DNA from: Desulfurococcales archaeon ex4484_204
GTDB taxonomy: Archaea; Thermoproteota; Thermoprotei_A; Sulfolobales; NBVN01
DNA length: 34,134 bases
Direction: 5' to 3'
Assembly (NCBI GenBank): GCA_002255065.1
Contig: NJEF01000005.1
Span: 1-34,134 of the forward strand
In this document: positions 2,275 through 23,931 of the stretch, piece by piece
Position numbering within the stretch: the first letter of the stretch is position 1
Layout of the letters: each line of letters begins with the position of its first letter
Notes under the pieces: model-generated
Databases searched by the model: none
Seen by the model: only the letters and a program-made list of their open reading frames with translations
What the model was told of the DNA's origin: nothing
Made by a program: the position numbers and the translations under genes

Positions 2275-2510
2275 AATAGTTTATGAAAGTATGAAGTCGT
2301 TACTCACCTTAATACCTAAGTCAGCAAGTTTCTTAGTGCAGTTCACGCTGTATTTCCACGTTTTATTTATTCGTATCTAGTATACTGTTACTGAATCGCA
2401 TAATGCATAGGGGATTACTGCAGTGATTAAGCCCTAATAAGTGGTCAACTTCATGCATTACCTCCTTCCTAACCCTACTAAGCAGTACATCTCTATTACC
2501 CCCGCTAATC

Positions 2511-3188
2511 ATGAAGTACAGTCTAGGGGTATATACTGAGGCAACCCTAAGTGAGGGAGTAGCTACGAGCCTTGGTCTTACTGCGAGGATTTACTGGTTG
2601 GATGTATTCTATTCCCCTGATACCTTCTTTGAGGAAGAACTCAGGGAATACGCTTACATGGGTGCTACGGAGAAAAACATAGAAAGAGTAGTTAAGGGTA
2701 GATTGTCTAGCAGGCTTCCCGAAGTATTCCTTACGGATAGGCATGACAGGGTATACGGCTTCGGAGCCTACGCATTAAAGAATGAGGCTCTAAAACCGGC
2801 TGTAACGTCTTGGAGAAGCAACGTAAAGGCCAAGCTACCAAAGAATATGAGAAAACATATACTCCTCGAAGCATCACGTGCTAGGGAGTTCCTAGTAGTG
2901 CTTAGTGGTTCGCTTTTATCACCTCTTCTCATATCCAAGCTGGAGAAAATATTCAAGAGAAAGATCCGAAACACGAGGTTCTATAAAGGCACAATTATCA
3001 ACGATACAGTGAGGTACATCGATGAGAAACTAAGAGAAAATACCACCACACCTAGTACACGATATAAGGAAAGTACTCACAGAAGGAAAACTGCCACGGG
3101 GAAGGTGACGAGAAGAAATCATAAAAGCAATGCAGGTATAGATTCTCTTATTTCTTGTTTATTAATAGATTTCACTCTTCTTCCGTAG
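2511..3188 (+). CDS. hypothetical protein (island-borne; Lys/Arg/Thr-rich C-terminal third)
   Basis: This is a 225-aa ORF with no motif I recognise and no obvious TATA box or SD upstream. It may itself be a decaying gene. Confidence 0.3.
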   Translation: MKYSLGVYTEATLSEGVATSLGLTARIYWLDVFYSPDTFFEEELREYAYMGATEKNIERVVKGRLSSRLPEVFLTDRHDRVYGFGAYALKNEALKPAVTSWRSNVKAKLPKNMRKHILLEASRAREFLVVLSGSLLSPLLISKLEKIFKRKIRNTRFYKGTIINDTVRYIDEKLRENTTTPSTRYKESTHRRKTATGKVTRRNHKSNAGIDSLISCLLIDFTLLP

Positions 3189-3237
3189 AGTTTCCTGCTT
3201 TAAAATTGATGTTTATAGAAGGCGGGAGTAGGAGGAG

Positions 3238-3815
3238 ATGAGTGTTCATAGTAATAGTGTGACAGGAATTTATAAATTTGAGCAACTTAGCCAAGCTTCT
3301 AATCTTGTTAGCTCCATTGGAGCCCGACAAGAGGGGTGGGTCTTCAACGATTATACATGTAATATAAATATTAGTATACCGCGATGGTTGTCGAAGTTAT
3401 TGGGGTATGGCGATGAAGGTGTTACTAGGTATATTGTGTTAAAGCTGAGTTTGAGGCCGGATTGGAATTGTTTGGTTTCATTGCCTTGGCGTGTTGTTAG
3501 GTCTCGTTCTGCTCCTTCGCTTGTCCCTGATAATGTATTCGTAAAGTTTATCAAATAAGAGGTTGTGGGTAAGTTTAAGTTTAATCGTTGGTTGGAGGTT
3601 GTTGCTACTCCTCGTGCTGGTAAGAGTGCTGATGTTATTCAAGAGGTTATTCGATATTATTGAGAATGACCTGGCGAATTATACTGTTCTTGTTGTTGCA
3701 CCTAATCAACGTTTAGCTGAAACGTTGTATAGATATGCTATTGGTGCTACTGCACGTTTGTATAGAGAGTTGCGTAGAAACAGAATTAAGATCTCTACAC
3801 CGCCACCGCACGTCC
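3238..3815 (+). pseudogene. Broken P-loop NTPase gene (terminase-large-subunit-like or SF2-helicase-like N-terminus)
   Basis: ORF 3238-3558 continues in the same frame across a TAA (3556-3558) into EVVGKFKFNRWLEVVATPRAGKSADVIQEVIRYY, with Walker A at about 3607-3627. That frame then stops at TGA 3661-3663. The sequence resumes in the +1 frame as ENDLANYTVLVVAPNQRLAETLYRY, which resembles motif Ia. An AGGAGG lies just before ATG 3238. The hydrophobic start of track ORF 3563 (MWVSLSLIVGWRLLLLL) is an out-of-frame reading of this Walker A segment. Confidence 0.45.
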
Positions 3816-4489
3816 CTGGGCACGTTCTAGATAAGGTAGTGTTCTCTATTCAGGACGACATGTATAGGGCTCTGTTCTGTTTAATGCGTATAACAGGTGC
3901 TAGAATAGAAGAAATAGTGTTACTTGGAAGAGAGAATAATAAACGATGAAGATTCGATATACGTTAGATTTGACGTAACCAAGGTATGTCAAGAGAAGTA
4001 CCGCTGAACCGGTCTGGATTTAAACAACACTTGAGAATGTTCCTTACACGGTATTATCACCAACATCCTAAAGCCAGCGATCCTAGTGCCTGGCTCTTCC
4101 CGAGAACTACGGATTTAAGTAGACCTGTGCCCAGGAACTTCATGTATCTAATGTTTAAGAAAGCCGCGAGGAGTCTAGCAAAGTCAGATCCCGAAATTCA
4201 GAAGTACTTAGAGCATATATACCCGCATTAGTTTAGGCATACACGCGCTTATGAATTAGTGTTTCAGAACTAGAATTTTCGGTGGATAGTGTACTACTTT
4301 GGCTAGAGGAAGGTAGATGTGGTGTTACGATACATGCAGGCATTTGAGTTAAAGCAGGTATACAGGATGTTAAATGGTAATGGGAATAGTAATGGAAAGG
4401 TTAAGACCTGTCTTAGGTGCTACGCTCTAATACCAGAAAATGCAAGACTGGTTCACAGGTACTGTAATAGATCAAGACGCAGAAAATAA
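3800..4489 (+). pseudogene. Tyrosine recombinase (integrase) catalytic domain, inactivated by multiple in-frame stop codons
   Basis: A single reading frame gives ALFCLMRITGARIEEIVLL (box I Arg), then EVPLN, then HIYPH*FRHTRAYELV (box II H-x-x-R-H-T), then VVLRYMQ (candidate Tyr nucleophile), ending at TAA 4487-4489. In-frame stops occur at 3947 (TGA), 3965 (TAG), 3971 (TGA), 4229 (TAG), 4271 (TAG) and 4304 (TAG). Confidence 0.7.
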
Positions 4490-4821
4490 ACAAGATCCAT
4501 TTTAATTTTCATAATAAAATAAATGATAAGCATGCCTTAGAAAAACATTAGTTTTTACTTCTCCCCAACCAGTAAAAATTGCTCTTCTCCTCAACCCTAT
4601 CAACAGGTTATGGTCTCACGCATGGGGTGCTGTGATGGTAGGGCTGGAAGCCCAATAGCAAAGATGAGTACGGTGCGATTTAGCATAGGTTTAAAACGTT
4701 GTGTCATTGTTTGTTAATAAATTTGTGTTGCCAGCTCCTAAAAATATTAAACCGATTCTTCCCGTGTCCTTCCGGAGGTTAACGGAATAGGGGTGTAGGT
4801 GGAGAGAACAAACAATTATTT

Positions 4822-4834
4822 GCTAATTATAGAA
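4822..4834 (+). promoter_or_regulatory. Candidate TATA box for the 4851-5756 two-gene unit (leaderless-type spacing)
   Basis: The sequence ctaattatagaa is centred about 24-26 nt upstream of the GTG at 4851. That spacing is typical between an archaeal TATA box and the start of a leaderless transcript. Confidence 0.3.
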
Positions 4835-4850
4835 TACAAAAACTTTAAGA

Positions 4851-5072
4851 GTGAACAAAGAAGGTGTCTTAAAGTTAGGTTTATGCGAGATGATTAAATA
4901 TAGTATAGCAGGAATGGGGATGAGGAGTCCTCTAGACGTGCTTAAAGAAGCCAACAGAAGGAAGAGATCGGCTAAAATAAAGACTCCACTTGTTTTGATA
5001 AGATCTCTTAATAAGGAGAGAAGAAGGATAGTTGCTACCCAAAGAATTCTAGAACGTGTTGTAGGTAGGTGA
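4851..5072 (+). CDS. small, strongly basic hypothetical protein (73 aa), co-oriented 6 nt upstream of the proteasome-like gene
   Basis: The ORF starts at GTG and contains an Arg/Lys-rich segment (EANRRKRSAKIKT...NKERRRIVATQRILERVVGR). It ends 6 nt before ATG 5079, and a GGTGA SD-like motif for the downstream gene lies inside its 3' end. No family was recognised. An internal start (MIKYS) is possible. Confidence 0.4.
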   Translation: MNKEGVLKLGLCEMIKYSIAGMGMRSPLDVLKEANRRKRSAKIKTPLVLIRSLNKERRRIVATQRILERVVGR

Positions 5073-5078
5073 TGTGCA

Positions 5079-5756
5079 ATGACCTTAATAATAGGTATTA
5101 GAAGTAAAGATGGTGTAGTTTTGGGGAGTGATAGAAAGGTTCTTCGAAGTGGCGAAGTTGAGTACTCTAATAAAATTTTCATTGTTAATAATGTTGCCTT
5201 GGCCGTTGAGGGCCTTACAGGGATCAGAGATGATTCTCTCTACTTGCTAAATGCAGAGTTACAGCGTGGGCGAGGGGTAGATACTCTTTATGAGATGAAG
5301 GTTATTGCTGAGGACATTATAGCTGAGCTTACTGAGAGATACAGAGACCGCGTTAGGGAGGAGATGCCTATAGGAGTATTAATGGCTGGAAGGGAGTATC
5401 TCGTTAATGGTAAAGCATTACTATACTATATACACGGTATGGGGTATGGCGAGGCAGTAGACTTTTTATGTACTGGTCATGGAGGTCATTACGCCACCTC
5501 ATTGGCTAAGTTCCTACCCAAGAAAGACCATGATGTTATTGAGAATGCTAAGAGAGTAGCCTTTATAATATCTTGGGTAACTGAAGACGTCGACGTAACT
5601 GTTGGTGGTGATCCAGACGTGGTTATTGTACAAGATAGCGATAAACCAGCTAGTGAACCTATAGAGCAGTTGGATGCAAACTTAGTAAATAACATGAAAA
5701 TTAAGGCTAAGGAAGTTAAGAAGAGGTTTGCCGATATAATCTTTGGTTCAACGTAA
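5079..5756 (+). CDS. Proteasome beta-subunit / HslV-like Ntn-hydrolase, no propeptide (Thr directly after initiator Met)
   Basis: MTLIIGIRSKDGVVLGSDRKV aligns with the mature N-terminus of archaeal beta subunits (TTTVGITLKDAVIMATERRV). NKIFIVNNVALAVEGLTGIRDDSLYLLNAEL aligns with the Lys33 region ([33 protein letters not shown]). IGVLMAG aligns with VQLLVGG. CTGHGGHYATSLA aligns with the GSGS/GSGG motif. DVDVTVGGDPDVVIV aligns with the C-terminal strand. A GGTGA lies 6 nt upstream of the ATG. Confidence 0.8.
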   Translation: MTLIIGIRSKDGVVLGSDRKVLRSGEVEYSNKIFIVNNVALAVEGLTGIRDDSLYLLNAELQRGRGVDTLYEMKVIAEDIIAELTERYRDRVREEMPIGVLMAGREYLVNGKALLYYIHGMGYGEAVDFLCTGHGGHYATSLAKFLPKKDHDVIENAKRVAFIISWVTEDVDVTVGGDPDVVIVQDSDKPASEPIEQLDANLVNNMKIKAKEVKKRFADIIFGST

Positions 5757-6032
5757 TTTAATCAAAGTAAAAGTTTATGTTAAGTTCCAACCGCGAAATC
5801 TCGATGATTCTAGGGAAGTGTTTTATTCCTGAGGGTGATGATATTTTCTTGGTGAACCCCATGTCCGTGCTTGTTCACCAATTCTCCAAATATCTGTCTC
5901 AACTGAATACTTAACTAGCGATTGATTTAGAATGGAGATCCCCGCAGAACACACAGAATACTGCTAATTATCCTCATAAACACCTAATAGCTAATAACCT
6001 CTTAAAGTAATTAGCGAGTTCACCGACCTTCA

Positions 6033-17323: not shown

Positions 17324-17416
17324 GGGGCCGTCGTCTAGCTTGGCTAGGATGCCAGCCTGGGGTGTAAACCCCGCACAGAGCGCTGGTGGTCCCGGGTTCA
17401 AATCCCGGCGGCCCCA
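17324..17416 (+). tRNA. tRNA-Pro (anticodon GGG) with an 18-nt intron at the canonical 37/38 position; CCA not encoded
   Basis: I folded this by hand. The acceptor stem is GGGGCCG/CGGCCCC with discriminator A. The D arm is GTCT...GGAT. The anticodon stem is CCAGC/GCTGG. The loop is C-T-GGG-G, then the intron tgtaaaccccgcacagag (17363-17380), then C. The T arm is CCGGG-TTCAAAT-CCCGG. The intron's CCCC pairs with the anticodon GGGG, as expected for a bulge-helix-bulge substrate. Confidence 0.9.
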
Positions 17417-19529: not shown

Positions 19530-21332
19530 TTACACGTAATACCTATTTAAAATATAAGTTTTAATGTGGTAAACAACGTTATTACCTCTAAGCCAGGCCA
19601 GCGCCTCAAAGTTGGGAAGCCTTGGTAGCTCCTCACGGATAAGCCTAAACATGCTTTGCACACCACCAGATACAACCTTAGCTATGTAGGAAGCACCGGT
19701 AGCTTCAGCTAGGGAGAAGGAGATAACTACCTTAGCATTCGTTAAAGCAGAAGTGTCTAGGCGTAAGGGATCCTGCGATATCACGACAACAGCAACACCA
19801 AACTTCCTCCCCTCACACAGCATCCTAGCTAAGGTCGACCTCCTACCCTTACCTAAATACCTATGGGCCTCCTCAACAACTAGTAGTACGGTACCTCCAT
19901 ACCTTTTAACAGCGTAGAAGAGCATTTCAAGGGCTGTCTCAACGTACACCCTAGATAAGGACTCGCTCTCAATAACGCTTAAATCGATTACTGAGACACC
20001 GCTAATGAGGTCTTCAGGCCTCACCCAGTAGGTTACCTCCCTCTTAAACCTAAGCATCCTTATGTATGGAATCAACGATCTATATACGTCCCTAGCGAAC
20101 TCAAGCGAATCCTTAGCCCCCGAACTAGAACCTACTATAGCTTTTGTAAGAGCCTCCTCTAGGCTATCTAACGTTGGGTTATCAACTCTCCTATAAAGCT
20201 CTAGCACTATCTTCTGGAGAGCTGATCTCTGAATGTTACCGAGCCTGAATGACGATGCTATAAGGTCTGCGACTTCCTTAGCCCTAACACTAGGCTCCTT
20301 ATCAAGTCTGTCAAGAATATTCACGGGGTTCTCAACAGGGGTGAAGACCTTAGCCCCGCTAATACCTCTGTACTCACCATGTGTATCGATGATTAGGATA
20401 GCCCCACCTAGCTTCTCAGCGACTTGTTTAACTATAGCCTTACCTAACATGGACTTCCCGCTCCCTGACGCCCCAACAATAACTATGTGGTTGTTCTCAC
20501 CGTGCTTGAAAGGAACCTCTAGGACCTTTCCTGGCGCTTTACGCCACCTGCCTTTACTAAGGACCTTAATAACTCTACCTAACACTACCCCCTCCCCGGC
20601 TGCTACGGGCTCCCCTCCCCTAACGTCTATTAGGGTGAGGGCTAGGGGTAGTGAGAGAGGTATGAATGTTAGCACAGCGGACCACACGTAGACAAGCCCT
20701 GGACTTGATAAAGCTCTATCAGCGTTAGTTAAGGCGATTAAGAAGAAGGTAGCAACTATGGTGAATACGTAGAGGATCGTGGCGGAGTCATTAAGAGGTT
20801 TTACGTTGATTAAGGGTAGCACTACGTGTAGTAGCCCGAGTTTAAGCGTTAATGGGATGCCTAAGTACTTAAGGCCGTAGTACAGCAATGATGTATTTAT
20901 TATAGTAAAGCCCAGCAAGCCTGCTAGGGCTATGAACACGTTGCTACTTAAGCTCCTGTAGCTCTTCCCGATACCACGCGGTATTCTCAGGGACTTAAAG
21001 AATGAGGACCCTATCAGGAACGTTATAGAGTATACTAGGAGGTACAGCGTGAATAGCTCACGGATAAACTCCCTACTCATGCTCCTTGTATCTAGAACGA
21101 CTGCTAGGCTAGCTATGAATATTAGCTCAGCTACGGCGATCCTAATACTACCAGATCTTCCACCCACATACCCAGCAATCCCCACTAAGACGTAAGTGAG
21201 TATGGTGCCGAGAGCTAGCGTTGGTAGGCCTTCATGGGCTAACTGAACTATAAGAATCGCCACTAAGGCGTTAACTACGGTCAGCGCTAACGATACAGCT
21301 AGCTCTCCCTTCTTAGCCGTATCTCCGTACAT
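19530..21332 (-). CDS. Polytopic membrane protein fused to a HerA/FtsK-type (DUF87-like) P-loop ATPase
   Basis: The N-terminal region of about 240 aa has roughly 7-8 hydrophobic helices. It is followed by Walker A (HIVIVGASGSGKS), IIDTHGEY, Walker B (TVLLVVEEAHRYL) and CEGRKFGVAVVVISQDP. These match the HerA/VirB4-type ATPase motif order. Confidence 0.85.
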   Translation of the reverse strand: MYGDTAKKGELAVSLALTVVNALVAILIVQLAHEGLPTLALGTILTYVLVGIAGYVGGRSGSIRIAVAELIFIASLAVVLDTRSMSREFIRELFTLYLLVYSITFLIGSSFFKSLRIPRGIGKSYRSLSSNVFIALAGLLGFTIINTSLLYYGLKYLGIPLTLKLGLLHVVLPLINVKPLNDSATILYVFTIVATFFLIALTNADRALSSPGLVYVWSAVLTFIPLSLPLALTLIDVRGGEPVAAGEGVVLGRVIKVLSKGRWRKAPGKVLEVPFKHGENNHIVIVGASGSGKSMLGKAIVKQVAEKLGGAILIIDTHGEYRGISGAKVFTPVENPVNILDRLDKEPSVRAKEVADLIASSFRLGNIQRSALQKIVLELYRRVDNPTLDSLEEALTKAIVGSSSGAKDSLEFARDVYRSLIPYIRMLRFKREVTYWVRPEDLISGVSVIDLSVIESESLSRVYVETALEMLFYAVKRYGGTVLLVVEEAHRYLGKGRRSTLARMLCEGRKFGVAVVVISQDPLRLDTSALTNAKVVISFSLAEATGASYIAKVVSGGVQSMFRLIREELPRLPNFEALAWLRGNNVVYHIKTYILNRYYV

Positions 21333-21394: not shown

Positions 21395-23143
21395 GTGGGA
21401 AGGGTAAGACGACTTAGTGCTGACGTGGTCGAGATACTGAGGAACTTAGGGTTCAGCACCCTCACCGAGATTCAGAGGAGAGCTATCCCTAAGGTCCTAG
21501 GAGGTCGCCACGTCATAATTATAGCACCCACAGGGAGCGGGAAGACAGAGGCTGCTTTCCTACCTGTAGTTAATGAGATCACCTGTAATAGATTAAAGCC
21601 TATAGCTGCTCTTTACATAACACCTCTAAGAGCTCTTAATAGGGACATATTTAGAAGGCTTAAAGAATTCGCTAGTAAGTTGAATATTCAGGTAGAGGTG
21701 AGGCATGGAGATACCACGCAGAGGAGGCGAAGGCTGATCAGGGAGAAGCCTCCCCACGTCTTAATAACCACCCCTGAAACTCTCTCGCTTATCTTGGTGG
21801 ATAAGGCCCTAAGAACTCACCTTAGAAATGTAAGGTACGTAATTATTGATGAATTCCACGATGTGCTATCTAGTAAGAGGGGCTCACACCTCCTCGCAGA
21901 TCTTGAGAGGCTTAGGAGGGTTGCAAGAAGCTTTCAACGCATAGCCCTCTCAGCAAGCATAGGGGACGTTAACCTAGTTAAGGAGGCCTTAGCACCTTCT
22001 TCAGTAGTTGATGAGGCAGTGCTAAGTACTGTTAGGAAAGCTAACATAGTTGTTAAAGCTCCTGGACTCTATGGAGGTAAGTTTCTTGATAAGGTCGATC
22101 TAATATCGTCCTTAATCAGGGACTACGGTAGTACGATAATATTCACTAATACACGTAACGAGGCAGAATGGCTCGGCTCTAAGATCTTAACAAAGGGTTT
22201 TAACGTCTCCGTACATCATGGAAGCCTCTCAAGAGTTGAGAGAGAGGAGGTTGAAAGGAGGTTGAGAAGTGGGAAGGTAAGTGCTGTTATAGCCACCTCA
22301 AGCCTTGAGTTGGGGATCGATGTAGGTCACGTTAAGGGGGTAATTCAGGTATCGTCGCCTAGACAAGCTATTAAACTCCTTCAGAGGGTTGGTAGGTCGA
22401 TGCATAGAGTTGGACTGGAGGCTAGGGGGGTTATAGTAACTGACCCTATGGTCGACGATATCTTAGAGTCCCTAGTTATCGCGAGAAGGGCTATAAGTGG
22501 GGACCTAGAAGGTCTTACCCCGTACTTGAAGCCTCTTGATGTACTGGCCCACGTAGTTGTGGGCATGGGGTTGGAGGGCGCGTCGTTTAAGGATGTGTAT
22601 GAGACATTAACACGAAGTTACCCCTTTAGGGACCTTAGTGAGGAAGACTTAAGTAAGGTGGTCGAGCTGCTCGTTAAGCTCGGGTATGTAAGGTTTAATA
22701 AGGGCTTAATCTCAACTACGGGGAGGGGAAGGCTTTATTATTTAAGGAGGACAATGATAGTTGACACATCCCGGTACTCCGTAATAGATGCCGTCAGCAG
22801 GACCTACTTAGGTGACTTAGACGAAGAGTTCGTTGCTACATCGCTAAGCGTCGACTCACTCATAGTGCTTGCTGGAAGGGTCTGGAGGGTGCTGAGTATA
22901 GATGGAGATGCCTTTAAGGTGTTCGTTGAGCCCGCCTCTGAGGAGGAGGCGTTCATACCTACATGGCTTGGCGAGACAATACCTGTTGAGTACCTAGTAG
23001 CGAGGGAGGTTTGTGCTTTAAGGAGGTTGATAGCTGAGAACCGTATACCTAACCACTACCTTAAGCTGGTAGAGAGGAACACCTTATCTTACGCGATAGA
23101 TGCCATAAGTAAGCATGTGAAGAAGGGCTTCCATATTCCGTAG
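21395..23143 (+). CDS. Lhr-type SF2 DEAD/DEAH-box helicase, core (RecA1-RecA2-WH-domain 4)
   Basis: The motifs are Q-like (LTEIQRRAIP), motif I (IIAPTGSGKTEAA), Ia (LYITPLRALNRD), II (IIDEFH), III (SAS), V-VI (ATSSLELGIDVG...QRVGRSMH), the WH segment (LDVLAHVVVG) and the domain 4 pattern (GDLDEEFV...LAGRVWRVLSID...IPTWLGE). The start is GTG. Confidence 0.85.
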   Translation: MGRVRRLSADVVEILRNLGFSTLTEIQRRAIPKVLGGRHVIIIAPTGSGKTEAAFLPVVNEITCNRLKPIAALYITPLRALNRDIFRRLKEFASKLNIQVEVRHGDTTQRRRRLIREKPPHVLITTPETLSLILVDKALRTHLRNVRYVIIDEFHDVLSSKRGSHLLADLERLRRVARSFQRIALSASIGDVNLVKEALAPSSVVDEAVLSTVRKANIVVKAPGLYGGKFLDKVDLISSLIRDYGSTIIFTNTRNEAEWLGSKILTKGFNVSVHHGSLSRVEREEVERRLRSGKVSAVIATSSLELGIDVGHVKGVIQVSSPRQAIKLLQRVGRSMHRVGLEARGVIVTDPMVDDILESLVIARRAISGDLEGLTPYLKPLDVLAHVVVGMGLEGASFKDVYETLTRSYPFRDLSEEDLSKVVELLVKLGYVRFNKGLISTTGRGRLYYLRRTMIVDTSRYSVIDAVSRTYLGDLDEEFVATSLSVDSLIVLAGRVWRVLSIDGDAFKVFVEPASEEEAFIPTWLGETIPVEYLVAREVCALRRLIAENRIPNHYLKLVERNTLSYAIDAISKHVKKGFHIP

Positions 23144-23163
23144 ACGTTAATGAATTAGCTAAC

Positions 23164-23931
23164 ATGGTTGTTCAAGTACTTCGCGACCTCACCTCCTCTA
23201 GCAAGGCGGACTTGGTGTTAAGTATTGAGGACTCATTAAAAGGCTCACCGCTGCATGGGTACGTAGCCTATAGGGTTCTAAGCAGGCTAGGAATAATACC
23301 TAAGAACGCGCCCATGAACATTATTAAGACTATCATTAGGAGATATGCTCAGGAAGAGGTCATTCGTAAAGAGATTATAAACGAACTAGTTACTAAGTAC
23401 CTTGACGTAAGCGCCTTACTGAGCTACTTAAGGGGTATCGCCTCAGGTAGGGTGGGGGTTAGGACTATCATTACCTCTACGCCATCACCGCTAGCTGAGG
23501 AGGGCGCTAAGCCTCCTGGGGGCGGGAGGGTAAGGTTTAGTGCCTTACCTAAAAGCGTAATAGCTGCACTTATGAAGAAGAGGCTATACTCAAGGGAGGT
23601 AGATCTCGTGTGTATGGTCTGTAAGCACCTATGGAGGGCTAGGATAGATGAGTTACCGGATAAGGTTAGGTGCCCTAAATGCGTGAGCGCTGGTAGGAAC
23701 TACAGGTTCGTTCTTAATGAAGATGAGAAGGAGATTTTCGAGAAGCTCTTAGATACAGCGAAGCTTACCCTGGTATATGGCAGGAAAGCTATTATAGCCC
23801 TTAACGCACATGGTGTGGGCCCCGCTTCAGCGAAGAGAGTATTGAATATTGAAGATGAGGAGGAGTTCCTCTACACGCTCTATCAGCTTGAGAGACAGTA
23901 CTTAAGGACGAGGAGGTTCTGGAGGGACTGA
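23164..23931 (+). CDS. Lhr-type helicase C-terminal portion (zinc-ribbon-containing), encoded as a separate ORF in another frame
   Basis: This 255-aa ORF follows the helicase core directly and contains a CxxC...CxxC ribbon (CMVCKHLW...RCPKCVS). Its frame is already open from 23113 and overlaps the end of the core ORF. That fits a single frameshift or a natural split. Confidence 0.65.
   Translation: MVVQVLRDLTSSSKADLVLSIEDSLKGSPLHGYVAYRVLSRLGIIPKNAPMNIIKTIIRRYAQEEVIRKEIINELVTKYLDVSALLSYLRGIASGRVGVRTIITSTPSPLAEEGAKPPGGGRVRFSALPKSVIAALMKKRLYSREVDLVCMVCKHLWRARIDELPDKVRCPKCVSAGRNYRFVLNEDEKEIFEKLLDTAKLTLVYGRKAIIALNAHGVGPASAKRVLNIEDEEEFLYTLYQLERQYLRTRRFWRD

Follow-up and report, generated by a model that had tools for sequence, protein, structure and literature searches.

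The window considered here, the whole 34,134-nucleotide (nt) stretch of contig NJEF01000005.1 from Desulfurococcales archaeon ex4484_204, carries on its forward strand a two-gene locus in which a small, strongly basic protein of about 50 amino acids is encoded directly upstream of a proteasome-like hydrolase. An earlier description of this DNA, made from its letters alone and referred to below as the sequence-only reading, had presented the hydrolase as an orphan enzyme without a propeptide. We propose that the two genes form an operon in which the small protein is the prodomain, acting in trans, of an N-terminal nucleophile (Ntn) hydrolase, a proposal to which we assign a probability of about 0.6 and which draws on the co-inheritance of the two genes and on relatives in which they are fused.

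The hydrolase and its active site

The hydrolase open reading frame (ORF), 5079–5756 (+), encodes an acidic protein of 225 amino acids (isoelectric point (pI) 5.2, net charge −7) with the N-terminus MTLIIGI. It matches the Pfam family PF00227 over residues 4–168 with 43.4 bits (E 4e-11), the gathering cutoff of this family being 22.4 bits, and its AlphaFold2 model, made from a 24-sequence alignment, has a predicted local distance difference test (pLDDT) score of 91.4 and a predicted template modelling (pTM) score of 0.89. Foldseek comparison with the PDB returned Anbu together with 20S β and α subunits (E 1e-13 to 1e-11, template modelling (TM) scores 0.68–0.79), and these results together confirm the proteasome fold, an α–β–β–α sandwich, that had been proposed for the ORF. 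The predicted structure includes the helices H1 (47–63) and H2 (70–87) and a long C-terminal helix (200–222).

Active-site equivalences were taken from a profile–profile alignment (hhalign) to the Thermoplasma β subunit. Thr2, which follows Met1, corresponds to Thermoplasma Thr1, Asp18 to Glu17, Lys32 in the NKIF context to Lys33, Gly48, the oxyanion residue, to Gly47, His134 in the GHGG motif to Ser129, Asp172 to Asp166 and Val175 to Ser169, and a PDB profile search agrees, placing 1pma_B residues 10–191 on profile positions 3–189. Among 24 family members Asp18, Lys32 and Gly48 are invariant, and Thr2 and His134 nearly so. The positions claimed beforehand for Asp18, the NKIF lysine and GHGG are borne out by this alignment and by family conservation, and the possibility that the Thr1, Asp17 and Lys33 positions might not be equivalent is answered by the profile alignment, which puts all three in register. 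Judged from alignment and predicted structure, the protein is a divergent proteasome-fold Ntn hydrolase with an intact set of catalytic residues, Thr2, Asp18 and Lys32.

The small upstream gene

An Arg/Lys-rich ORF beginning with GTG at 4851 and running to 5072 is indeed present and, as had been noted, leaves 6 nt to the hydrolase ATG; its full reading is 73 amino acids. Its first 21 codons (4851–4913, +) have no counterpart in any homologue, related small proteins being 44–65 amino acids long, and the conserved core covers only 50–52 residues. Since close relatives start MRSPLDVL or MGMRNPLDVL, and since nucleotide similarity to the copy in Zestosphaera begins exactly at 4914, the gene is better placed at 4914–5072 (+), where it encodes the 52-residue protein MGMRSPLDVLKEANRRKRSAKIKTPLVLIRSLNKERRRIVATQRILERVVGR, or 50 residues from the alternative ATG at 4920; the 73-residue length does not stand, and 4851–4913 is probably 5′ untranslated region rather than coding.

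The product is predicted to be helical, with a pI of 12.0 and a net charge of +12, which is complementary to the −7 of the hydrolase. It contains two tandem motifs of the form [ST]PL[DE]xL[KR]xxN, and a core xPL[DE]VL[KR]EANRR...[ST]PLDxL[RK]xLNxE+RR...ILxR is common to the translations of the upstream ORFs. The small-protein family comprises 47 clusters, all annotated as ‘hypothetical’, and half of its members are no longer than 53 amino acids (the median). No relative of the small protein was found in Pfam or the PDB.

Several candidate signals can be read from the sequence around the gene. A Shine–Dalgarno-like AGGTGA (5067–5072, +) lies 6 nt before the hydrolase ATG and includes the small gene's stop codon, an arrangement that suggests a single bicistronic transcript. 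The TATA-like element that had been described upstream of the GTG is present (AATTATAG, 4825–4832, +, ~26 nt before 4851) and is a candidate, though uncertain, promoter of the operon; a second A/T-rich element, TTAAATATA, occupies 4894–4902 (+).

Linkage of the two genes

A hidden Markov model (HMM) of the small protein was scanned over 106 collected loci, and counts were made on those that were non-redundant and extended 200 nt or more 5′ of the Thr codon, 70 in all. The small gene is separate, directly upstream and on the same strand in 58 of the 70, and the small protein is fused in frame to the hydrolase in a further eight, so that the small ORF is adjacent or fused in ~95% of loci; four loci have no strong match, one of which (L018) carries a three-repeat version. 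In every one of the first long contigs inspected, an ORF of 47–73 amino acids had been called immediately upstream, and in two loci (L009 and L010) the small ORF is present in the DNA and was left uncalled by gene callers. It also occurs in loci from Dehalococcoidia, Binataceae, Halobacteria and Methanophagales. As a control, all six frames of 621 kb were searched, and 88 of the 89 HMM matches fell on the hydrolase strand. The mirror-tree correlation between small protein and hydrolase is r = 0.84, a value reached in none of 2000 Mantel permutations.

The small gene and the hydrolase gene are a co-inherited pair. The earlier suggestion that the hydrolase may work with the basic small protein is strongly supported by these locus counts and this correlation, and the case illustrates that ORFs of 50 amino acids, often missed or mis-started by gene callers, can reveal the context of an ‘orphan’ enzyme. 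No third gene and no ATPase is conserved beside the pair across the neighbourhoods, in line with the earlier statement that the hydrolase has no visible ATPase partner; TnpB-like genes (six loci) and PIN genes (four loci) recur sporadically. In one locus of a distant branch of MTCIIG type (P0158) no small ORF was seen, and the linkage may therefore be limited to the core family.

The commonest spacing between the two genes is −4 nt, in the form of an ATGA or GTGA overlap, and this overlap as the norm implies translational coupling. The gap between the genes, taken modulo 3, is 2 in 37 loci, 0 in 14 and 1 in nine. Stop-codon read-through as a general mechanism was considered and rejected, because the frame relation differs between loci and because the 4-nt overlap is the normal arrangement. 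In the window itself (junction at 5070–5081) the small ORF and the hydrolase ORF share a reading frame, with nothing but TGA-TGT-GCA between them. This junction looks as if an ancestral fusion had been cleanly split, or as if a single mutation would suffice to fuse the two.

Fused relatives and the propeptide

Sixteen homologues of 280–334 amino acids are natural fusions, in which a small-protein-like N-terminus is followed by a linker of 8–12 residues and by G/TLIxG (the slash standing before the threonine). An HMM built from six free small proteins only recognises 15 of the fused extensions at E 1.6e-11 to 4.4e-4, the sixteenth, in P0116, reaching only E 0.16. The residue before the threonine is glycine in 16 of 16 fused proteins and in all eight fused loci. 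Gly-1/Thr1 is the autoprocessing site of proteasome β subunits, and an Ntn hydrolase requires the free α-amine of Thr1, so the fused segment must be removed for activation and is, by definition, a propeptide. These propeptides are 53–71 amino acids long; in the AlphaFold2 model of the fused protein P0063 (pLDDT 86) helices are predicted at 5–14 and 21–45, followed by a low-confidence linker before Thr54. More distant relatives have N-terminal extensions of 47–72 amino acids ending ...LVGKS/TLIIG or ...LTGR/TLVIG, and these ends resemble the window arrangement, in which ...RILERVVGR is followed by the stop codon, CA and M/TLIIG.

By this sequence comparison the small protein is a homologue of the cis propeptide, here encoded in trans. 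The sequence-only reading had stated that the hydrolase has no propeptide. In cis this holds, as the window protein starts Met-Thr and carries no extension ending in Gly-1 before the threonine, but the small ORF upstream is homologous to the propeptide of the fused relatives. On a rough neighbour-joining tree the fused and split states have interchanged at least two or three times, and the homology and the functional linkage hold whichever direction these changes ran.

The same evidence bears on two other ways of explaining the small protein. It could be a regulator that binds nucleic acid, such as an autorepressor of its own operon, and makes no contact with the enzyme; a pI of 12, a helical character and the first position in the operon would suit such a role, yet there is no helix-turn-helix, ribbon-helix-helix or other relative in Pfam or the PDB, and fusion ahead of a Thr1-dependent enzyme is hard to square with pure DNA binding, so that we regard this as very improbable. 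It could also be a dedicated substrate, either cut at its PL[DE]xL repeats or ligated, as connectase does with MtrA, so as to yield a peptide or a modified product. For this it can be said that the two tandem motifs (three in L018) could be recognition sites, that the two genes are strictly co-inherited, and that connectase is an example of the fold serving as a sequence-specific ligase (PMC7980362, cited in PMC8665760). We nevertheless consider it distinctly unlikely, given that the fused architecture implies cleavage only at Gly-1/Thr1 and not within the motifs, that the hydrolase keeps the helices H1 and H2 that are absent from the monomeric connectase (PMC8665760) and has no room for an S3/S4 insertion, and that no export, modification or immunity genes lie nearby.

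Relationship to known proteasome homologues

The plainest alternative to the detached prodomain is that the ORF is an ordinary host psmB and the ORF upstream of it a chance frame. The only points in favour are the match to the Pfam proteasome family PF00227 and a weak match to archaeal β subunits, and we regard the likelihood as negligible: the hydrolase scores 25.6 bits against the archaeal β equivalog TIGR03634, the cutoff of which is 224, its identity to solved β subunits is 13–23%, the loci show no conserved synteny, the family is patchily spread and includes bacteria without 20S-type contexts, and a chance frame would not be kept in nearly all loci. Psm​B identity was rejected on these grounds, and the low TIGR03634 score supports the earlier view of the protein as accessory. 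By sequence profile the hydrolase is about equally far from 20S α and β subunits. Within the 34,134 nt there is neither a 20S subunit gene nor a gene for a recognised proteasomal ATPase (PAN/Cdc48-type); P-loop proteins are represented only by a HerA-like helicase and a small kinase-like protein of AAA_17 type.

The comparison with PF00227, HslV, Anbu, BPH and connectase that had been called for was carried out, and the protein belongs with the first and with none of the other four. No HslV, Anbu, BPH or connectase chain is found among its best 60 PDB profile matches. HslV was rejected on this ground and because no HslV model appears among the NCBIfam matches at E ≤ 1, and it is further disfavoured by the lack of a conserved AAA+ gene near the hydrolase loci. 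BPH proteins, defined as bacterial only, with a compact subunit without the C-terminal S12/H5 and with an acidic pore loop, were set aside because the hydrolase family is mainly archaeal and has the long C-terminal helix 200–222, and because no BPH chain was among the sequence matches. Connectase, defined as monomeric, without H1/H2, with a two-helix S3/S4 insertion and found in methanogens, was likewise rejected: the helices H1 and H2 are present, there is no DUF2121 Pfam match, and the S3/S4 segment is two residues shorter than in Thermoplasma β, which leaves no room for the two-helix insertion.

Anbu provides the best structural match (5nyg/5nyw; Foldseek E 1.8e-13, TM 0.73–0.78), and shares with the hydrolase the Met-Thr start, a long C-terminal helix (Anbu H5) and the lack of an AAA+ partner. 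The likeness is only structural, with 13–16% identity and, as noted, no place among the best 60 profile matches, and Anbu itself has no propeptide-like partner. The operon partners of Anbu are ATP-grasp, transglutaminase-like and alpha-E proteins, and their genes are absent from the hydrolase neighbourhoods inspected; Anbu was rejected as the class of the hydrolase for these reasons.

The 20S β subunits with cis propeptides share the fold and catalytic residues of the hydrolase. Its best β-subunit sequence match is Rhodococcus β1 (1q5q_H, E 6e-6), and the propeptides of the fused relatives are similar in length to the 65-residue propeptide of Rhodococcus and other actinobacterial β subunits and likewise end at Gly-1/Thr1. 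Identity is low, at 14–20%, and, unlike in 20S β, there is no linked α subunit gene, the propeptide of the window protein is a separate gene, the small-protein sequence is unrelated to known β propeptides, and the active site has the changes Ser129 to His and Ser169 to Val.

The closest published description is that of Fuchs, Alva and Lupas (2021, Bioinformatics 37:4694, PMC8665760), who reported 22 new proteasome homologues. Among these, WPH, which occurs widely in both Bacteria and Archaea, resembles α as well as β subunits and is predicted to have a C-terminal coiled coil, and ACC is its archaeal counterpart (PMC8665760). Compared by description only, WPH and ACC both fit the hydrolase family: a Thr1 start without a cis propeptide, the Thr1/Asp17/Lys33/Gly47 set, about equal similarity to 20S α and β, a long C-terminal helix and no AAA+ partner, and, as for WPH, occurrence in Bacteria and in Archaea including Crenarchaeota. 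The authors found no genomic context for their homologues and propeptides only in β subunits and HslV (PMC8665760); in contrast, the hydrolase family has a conserved partner gene and fused forms with a propeptide of the length given above. A cluster look-up for WPH and ACC by accession returned only proteins of metagenome-assembled genomes (MAGs) and no WP_ accessions.

Later literature was also searched. A phrase search found no later paper on WPH, the top-ranked keyword results included no propeptide-in-trans Ntn hydrolase and no proteasome-like defence system, and a 2026 review has nothing on a split propeptide.

There are precedents for pro-regions that act apart from the enzyme. In subtilisin and α-lytic protease the detached pro-region is a folding catalyst and a tight temporary inhibitor, which is then degraded by the enzyme. 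The concept of an N-terminal pro-region acting in trans is shared with the pair described here, whereas the fold and catalytic type of those proteases are unrelated and the trans arrangement there is an experimental one, not a naturally separate gene. Chen and Hochstrasser are said to have found in 1996 that the yeast β5 propeptide also works in trans. With the Rhodococcus β propeptide, supplied in trans to propeptide-less β, assembly is accelerated and active 20S is formed within ~30 s (PMC9674962).

Family distribution and mobility

The label of orphan proved wrong, since a word-indexed search found 121 clusters of hydrolase homologues at E ≤ 1e-3, with 45–88% identity. All 121 come from MAGs or metagenomes and are annotated at most as ‘hypothetical’ or ‘20S proteasome alpha/beta subunit’, and every full-length homologue carries PF00227. 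When 1.84 billion representatives were searched exhaustively with an HMM, the numbers of matches were 42 (E ≤ 1e-30), 202 (E ≤ 1e-10) and 599 (E ≤ 1e-3), and the family is, on these sequence searches, real but rare. Among species-representative genomes its archaeal carriers are Pyrodictiaceae, Zestosphaera, other Desulfurococcales, Thermofilaceae, Bathyarchaeia, Nitrososphaerota, Halobacteria and Methanophagales, and its bacterial carriers Dehalococcoidia, Binataceae, Armatimonadetes and a ‘delta proteobacterium’, which makes for a patchy spread over Archaea and Bacteria. The host of the window is an uncultured Desulfurococcales-like archaeon, of which the best named S8e relatives are 66–69% identical.

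Two individual family members deserve a remark. P0139, a member of the 90% cluster to which the window protein belongs, is a 344-amino-acid call in which the hydrolase runs, as read by eye, into a PaaX/Cas2-like C-terminal region; this is probably read-through or an assembly artefact, though it may be a genuine fusion. Among named genomes the closest copy, that of Zestosphaera tikiterensis NZ3, has a 1-nt indel near codon 24–25 (L012:1675-1681) and may be a pseudogene or reflect an assembly error.

The two genes of the window appear to form a mobile cassette. The stretch 4914–5759 (+) aligns by blastn to the Z. tikiterensis locus with 78% identity over 847 nt and is the only part of the window with DNA similarity to that locus, the flanks being unrelated. 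With the Z. tikiterensis copy the hydrolase shares 82% of its amino acids; for S8e the identity is only 59%, the comparison there being with another genome, that of a Zestosphaera sp. MAG. The cassette lies in a low-GC island (~40% GC, 2300–5950) between a gene for a GltD-like oxidoreductase and the SRP19/S8e genes, and the A+T-rich island of the sequence-only reading is confirmed by a GC content of 40% over 2300–5759 vs 46.7–47.7% in the flanks. In the same island, 5′ of the cassette, is a decayed tyrosine-recombinase (integrase) gene (3563–4489, +), which occupies one frame with six in-frame stops and no frameshift, has the recognisable motifs RITGARIEE, H*FRHT and VLRY, and matches PF00589 weakly (E 0.06). 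Gene order differs around every hydrolase locus compared, and the variable neighbourhoods often contain PIN, TnpB-like, BrxC/D-like, AAA_15/21 and PaREP1 genes.

The cassette was probably acquired laterally and probably travels as a unit, as the low-GC island, the integrase pseudogene, the similarity to Zestosphaera that is confined to the cassette and the scattered family together suggest; horizontal acquisition had been proposed before. The survey for carriage by viruses or plasmids had a negative outcome: searches of the viral contigs of IMG/VR, the phages of INPHARED and the plasmids of PLSDB turned up no homologue, and PHROGs gave nothing meaningful. A direct-repeat search at the bounds of island and cassette gave one weak 26-nt pair with 73% identity (4805–4830 and 5946–5971), which brackets the cassette and is the sole boundary candidate, probably due to chance, and no tRNA integration target was found adjoining the island.

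Such mobility is one of the arguments for a toxin–antitoxin-like or defence module, in which the hydrolase would be a potentially harmful protease and the small protein a labile inhibitor, the loss of which during stress or infection would let proteolysis loose. The layout, with a small upstream gene overlapping a larger one by 4 nt, is that of toxin–antitoxin pairs, and the patchy cross-domain spread, the mobile cassette, the neighbourhoods rich in PIN, TnpB-like, BrxC/D-like, AAA_15/21 ATPase and PaREP1 genes and the setting of the window copy, a low-GC island that also holds a defunct integrase gene, would all be consistent with it. However, neither the small protein nor the hydrolase matches any defence model of PADLOC-DB v2 (E ≤ 1), the viral contigs, phages and plasmids searched yielded no member of the family, covalent fusions exist and are unusual for toxin–antitoxin pairs, and the neighbouring defence-like genes are not conserved. 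We consider the module unlikely, though a possibility to be taken seriously. The antitoxin role overlaps with the inhibitory half of the prodomain proposal and assigns it a different biological role. A combination of the two, in which a mobile, two-component, self-assembling and ATPase-independent protease would be a new kind of proteasome-fold toxin–antitoxin or defence module, the prodomain its labile, titratable off-switch, and the repeated fusion and fission of the two a record of the way in which proteasome propeptides originated, seems to us rather doubtful.

The rest of the window is housekeeping in character, with genes for SRP19, S8e, UppS, the CCA-adding enzyme, PCNA, an Lhr-type helicase, SerRS and the glycine cleavage system. 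A tRNA at 17324–17416 (+) is recognised by Rfam RF00005 (50.5 bits), ARAGORN having reported none in the window, and probably contains an intron, as the match spans 93 nt. The genes for the HerA-like (DUF87) ATPase (19530–21332, −) and the Lhr-type DEAD-box helicase (21395–23931, +) are divergent neighbours unrelated to the cassette, and the helicase is split into two ORFs, of 582 amino acids and of 255 amino acids, the latter being the DEAD_assoc part.

A proposed prodomain encoded in trans

Returning to the prodomain in trans, the proposed sequence of events would be as follows. Removal of the initiator methionine alone would expose the nucleophile threonine of the split hydrolase, whereas the fused relatives would have to cut off their propeptide at Gly-1/Thr1. 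The strongly basic, predicted two-helix protein of ~50 amino acids would associate with the acidic hydrolase as a detached prodomain, without a covalent bond, and would promote or time the assembly of the oligomer, mask the active site until assembly is complete, or both. It would then be released or degraded, leaving a peptidase that is independent of an ATPase. A role as assembly chaperone and/or transient inhibitor is most likely.

Several observations weigh against this proposal. Active proteasome subunits do not usually carry His in place of Ser129 or Val in place of Ser169, as the hydrolase does. A few lineages (L016, L017 and L057) are without the small ORF, which is therefore not absolutely required. 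The main fused clade nests inside the split forms on the rough neighbour-joining tree, so the fused form may be secondary, and the ‘propeptide’ would then be a derived state. Finally, the archaeal 20S propeptide has no known function (PMC8665760), and the prodomain analogy may for that reason not transfer.

These few loci without the small ORF share an element of ~60 nt just 5′ of the hydrolase (L016:1230-1300, L017:5860-5930 and L057:150-215), of the form GGGGATGAGCC...CTGAC...GATGAGGAAGCCGGCATTGAGG. Its box pattern resembles that of archaeal C/D-box small RNAs, and it has no match in Rfam.

For the family, the small protein is the first candidate interaction partner of an uncharacterised group of proteasome-like proteins, and the pair is a record of genes splitting or fusing at an autoprocessing site. 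It would also be a natural counterpart of the classical ‘propeptide in trans’ experiments, and the debated roles of propeptides, as assembly factor, as inhibitor or in the protection of the N-terminus, would become testable in a simple, two-protein, homo-oligomeric system from a thermophile.

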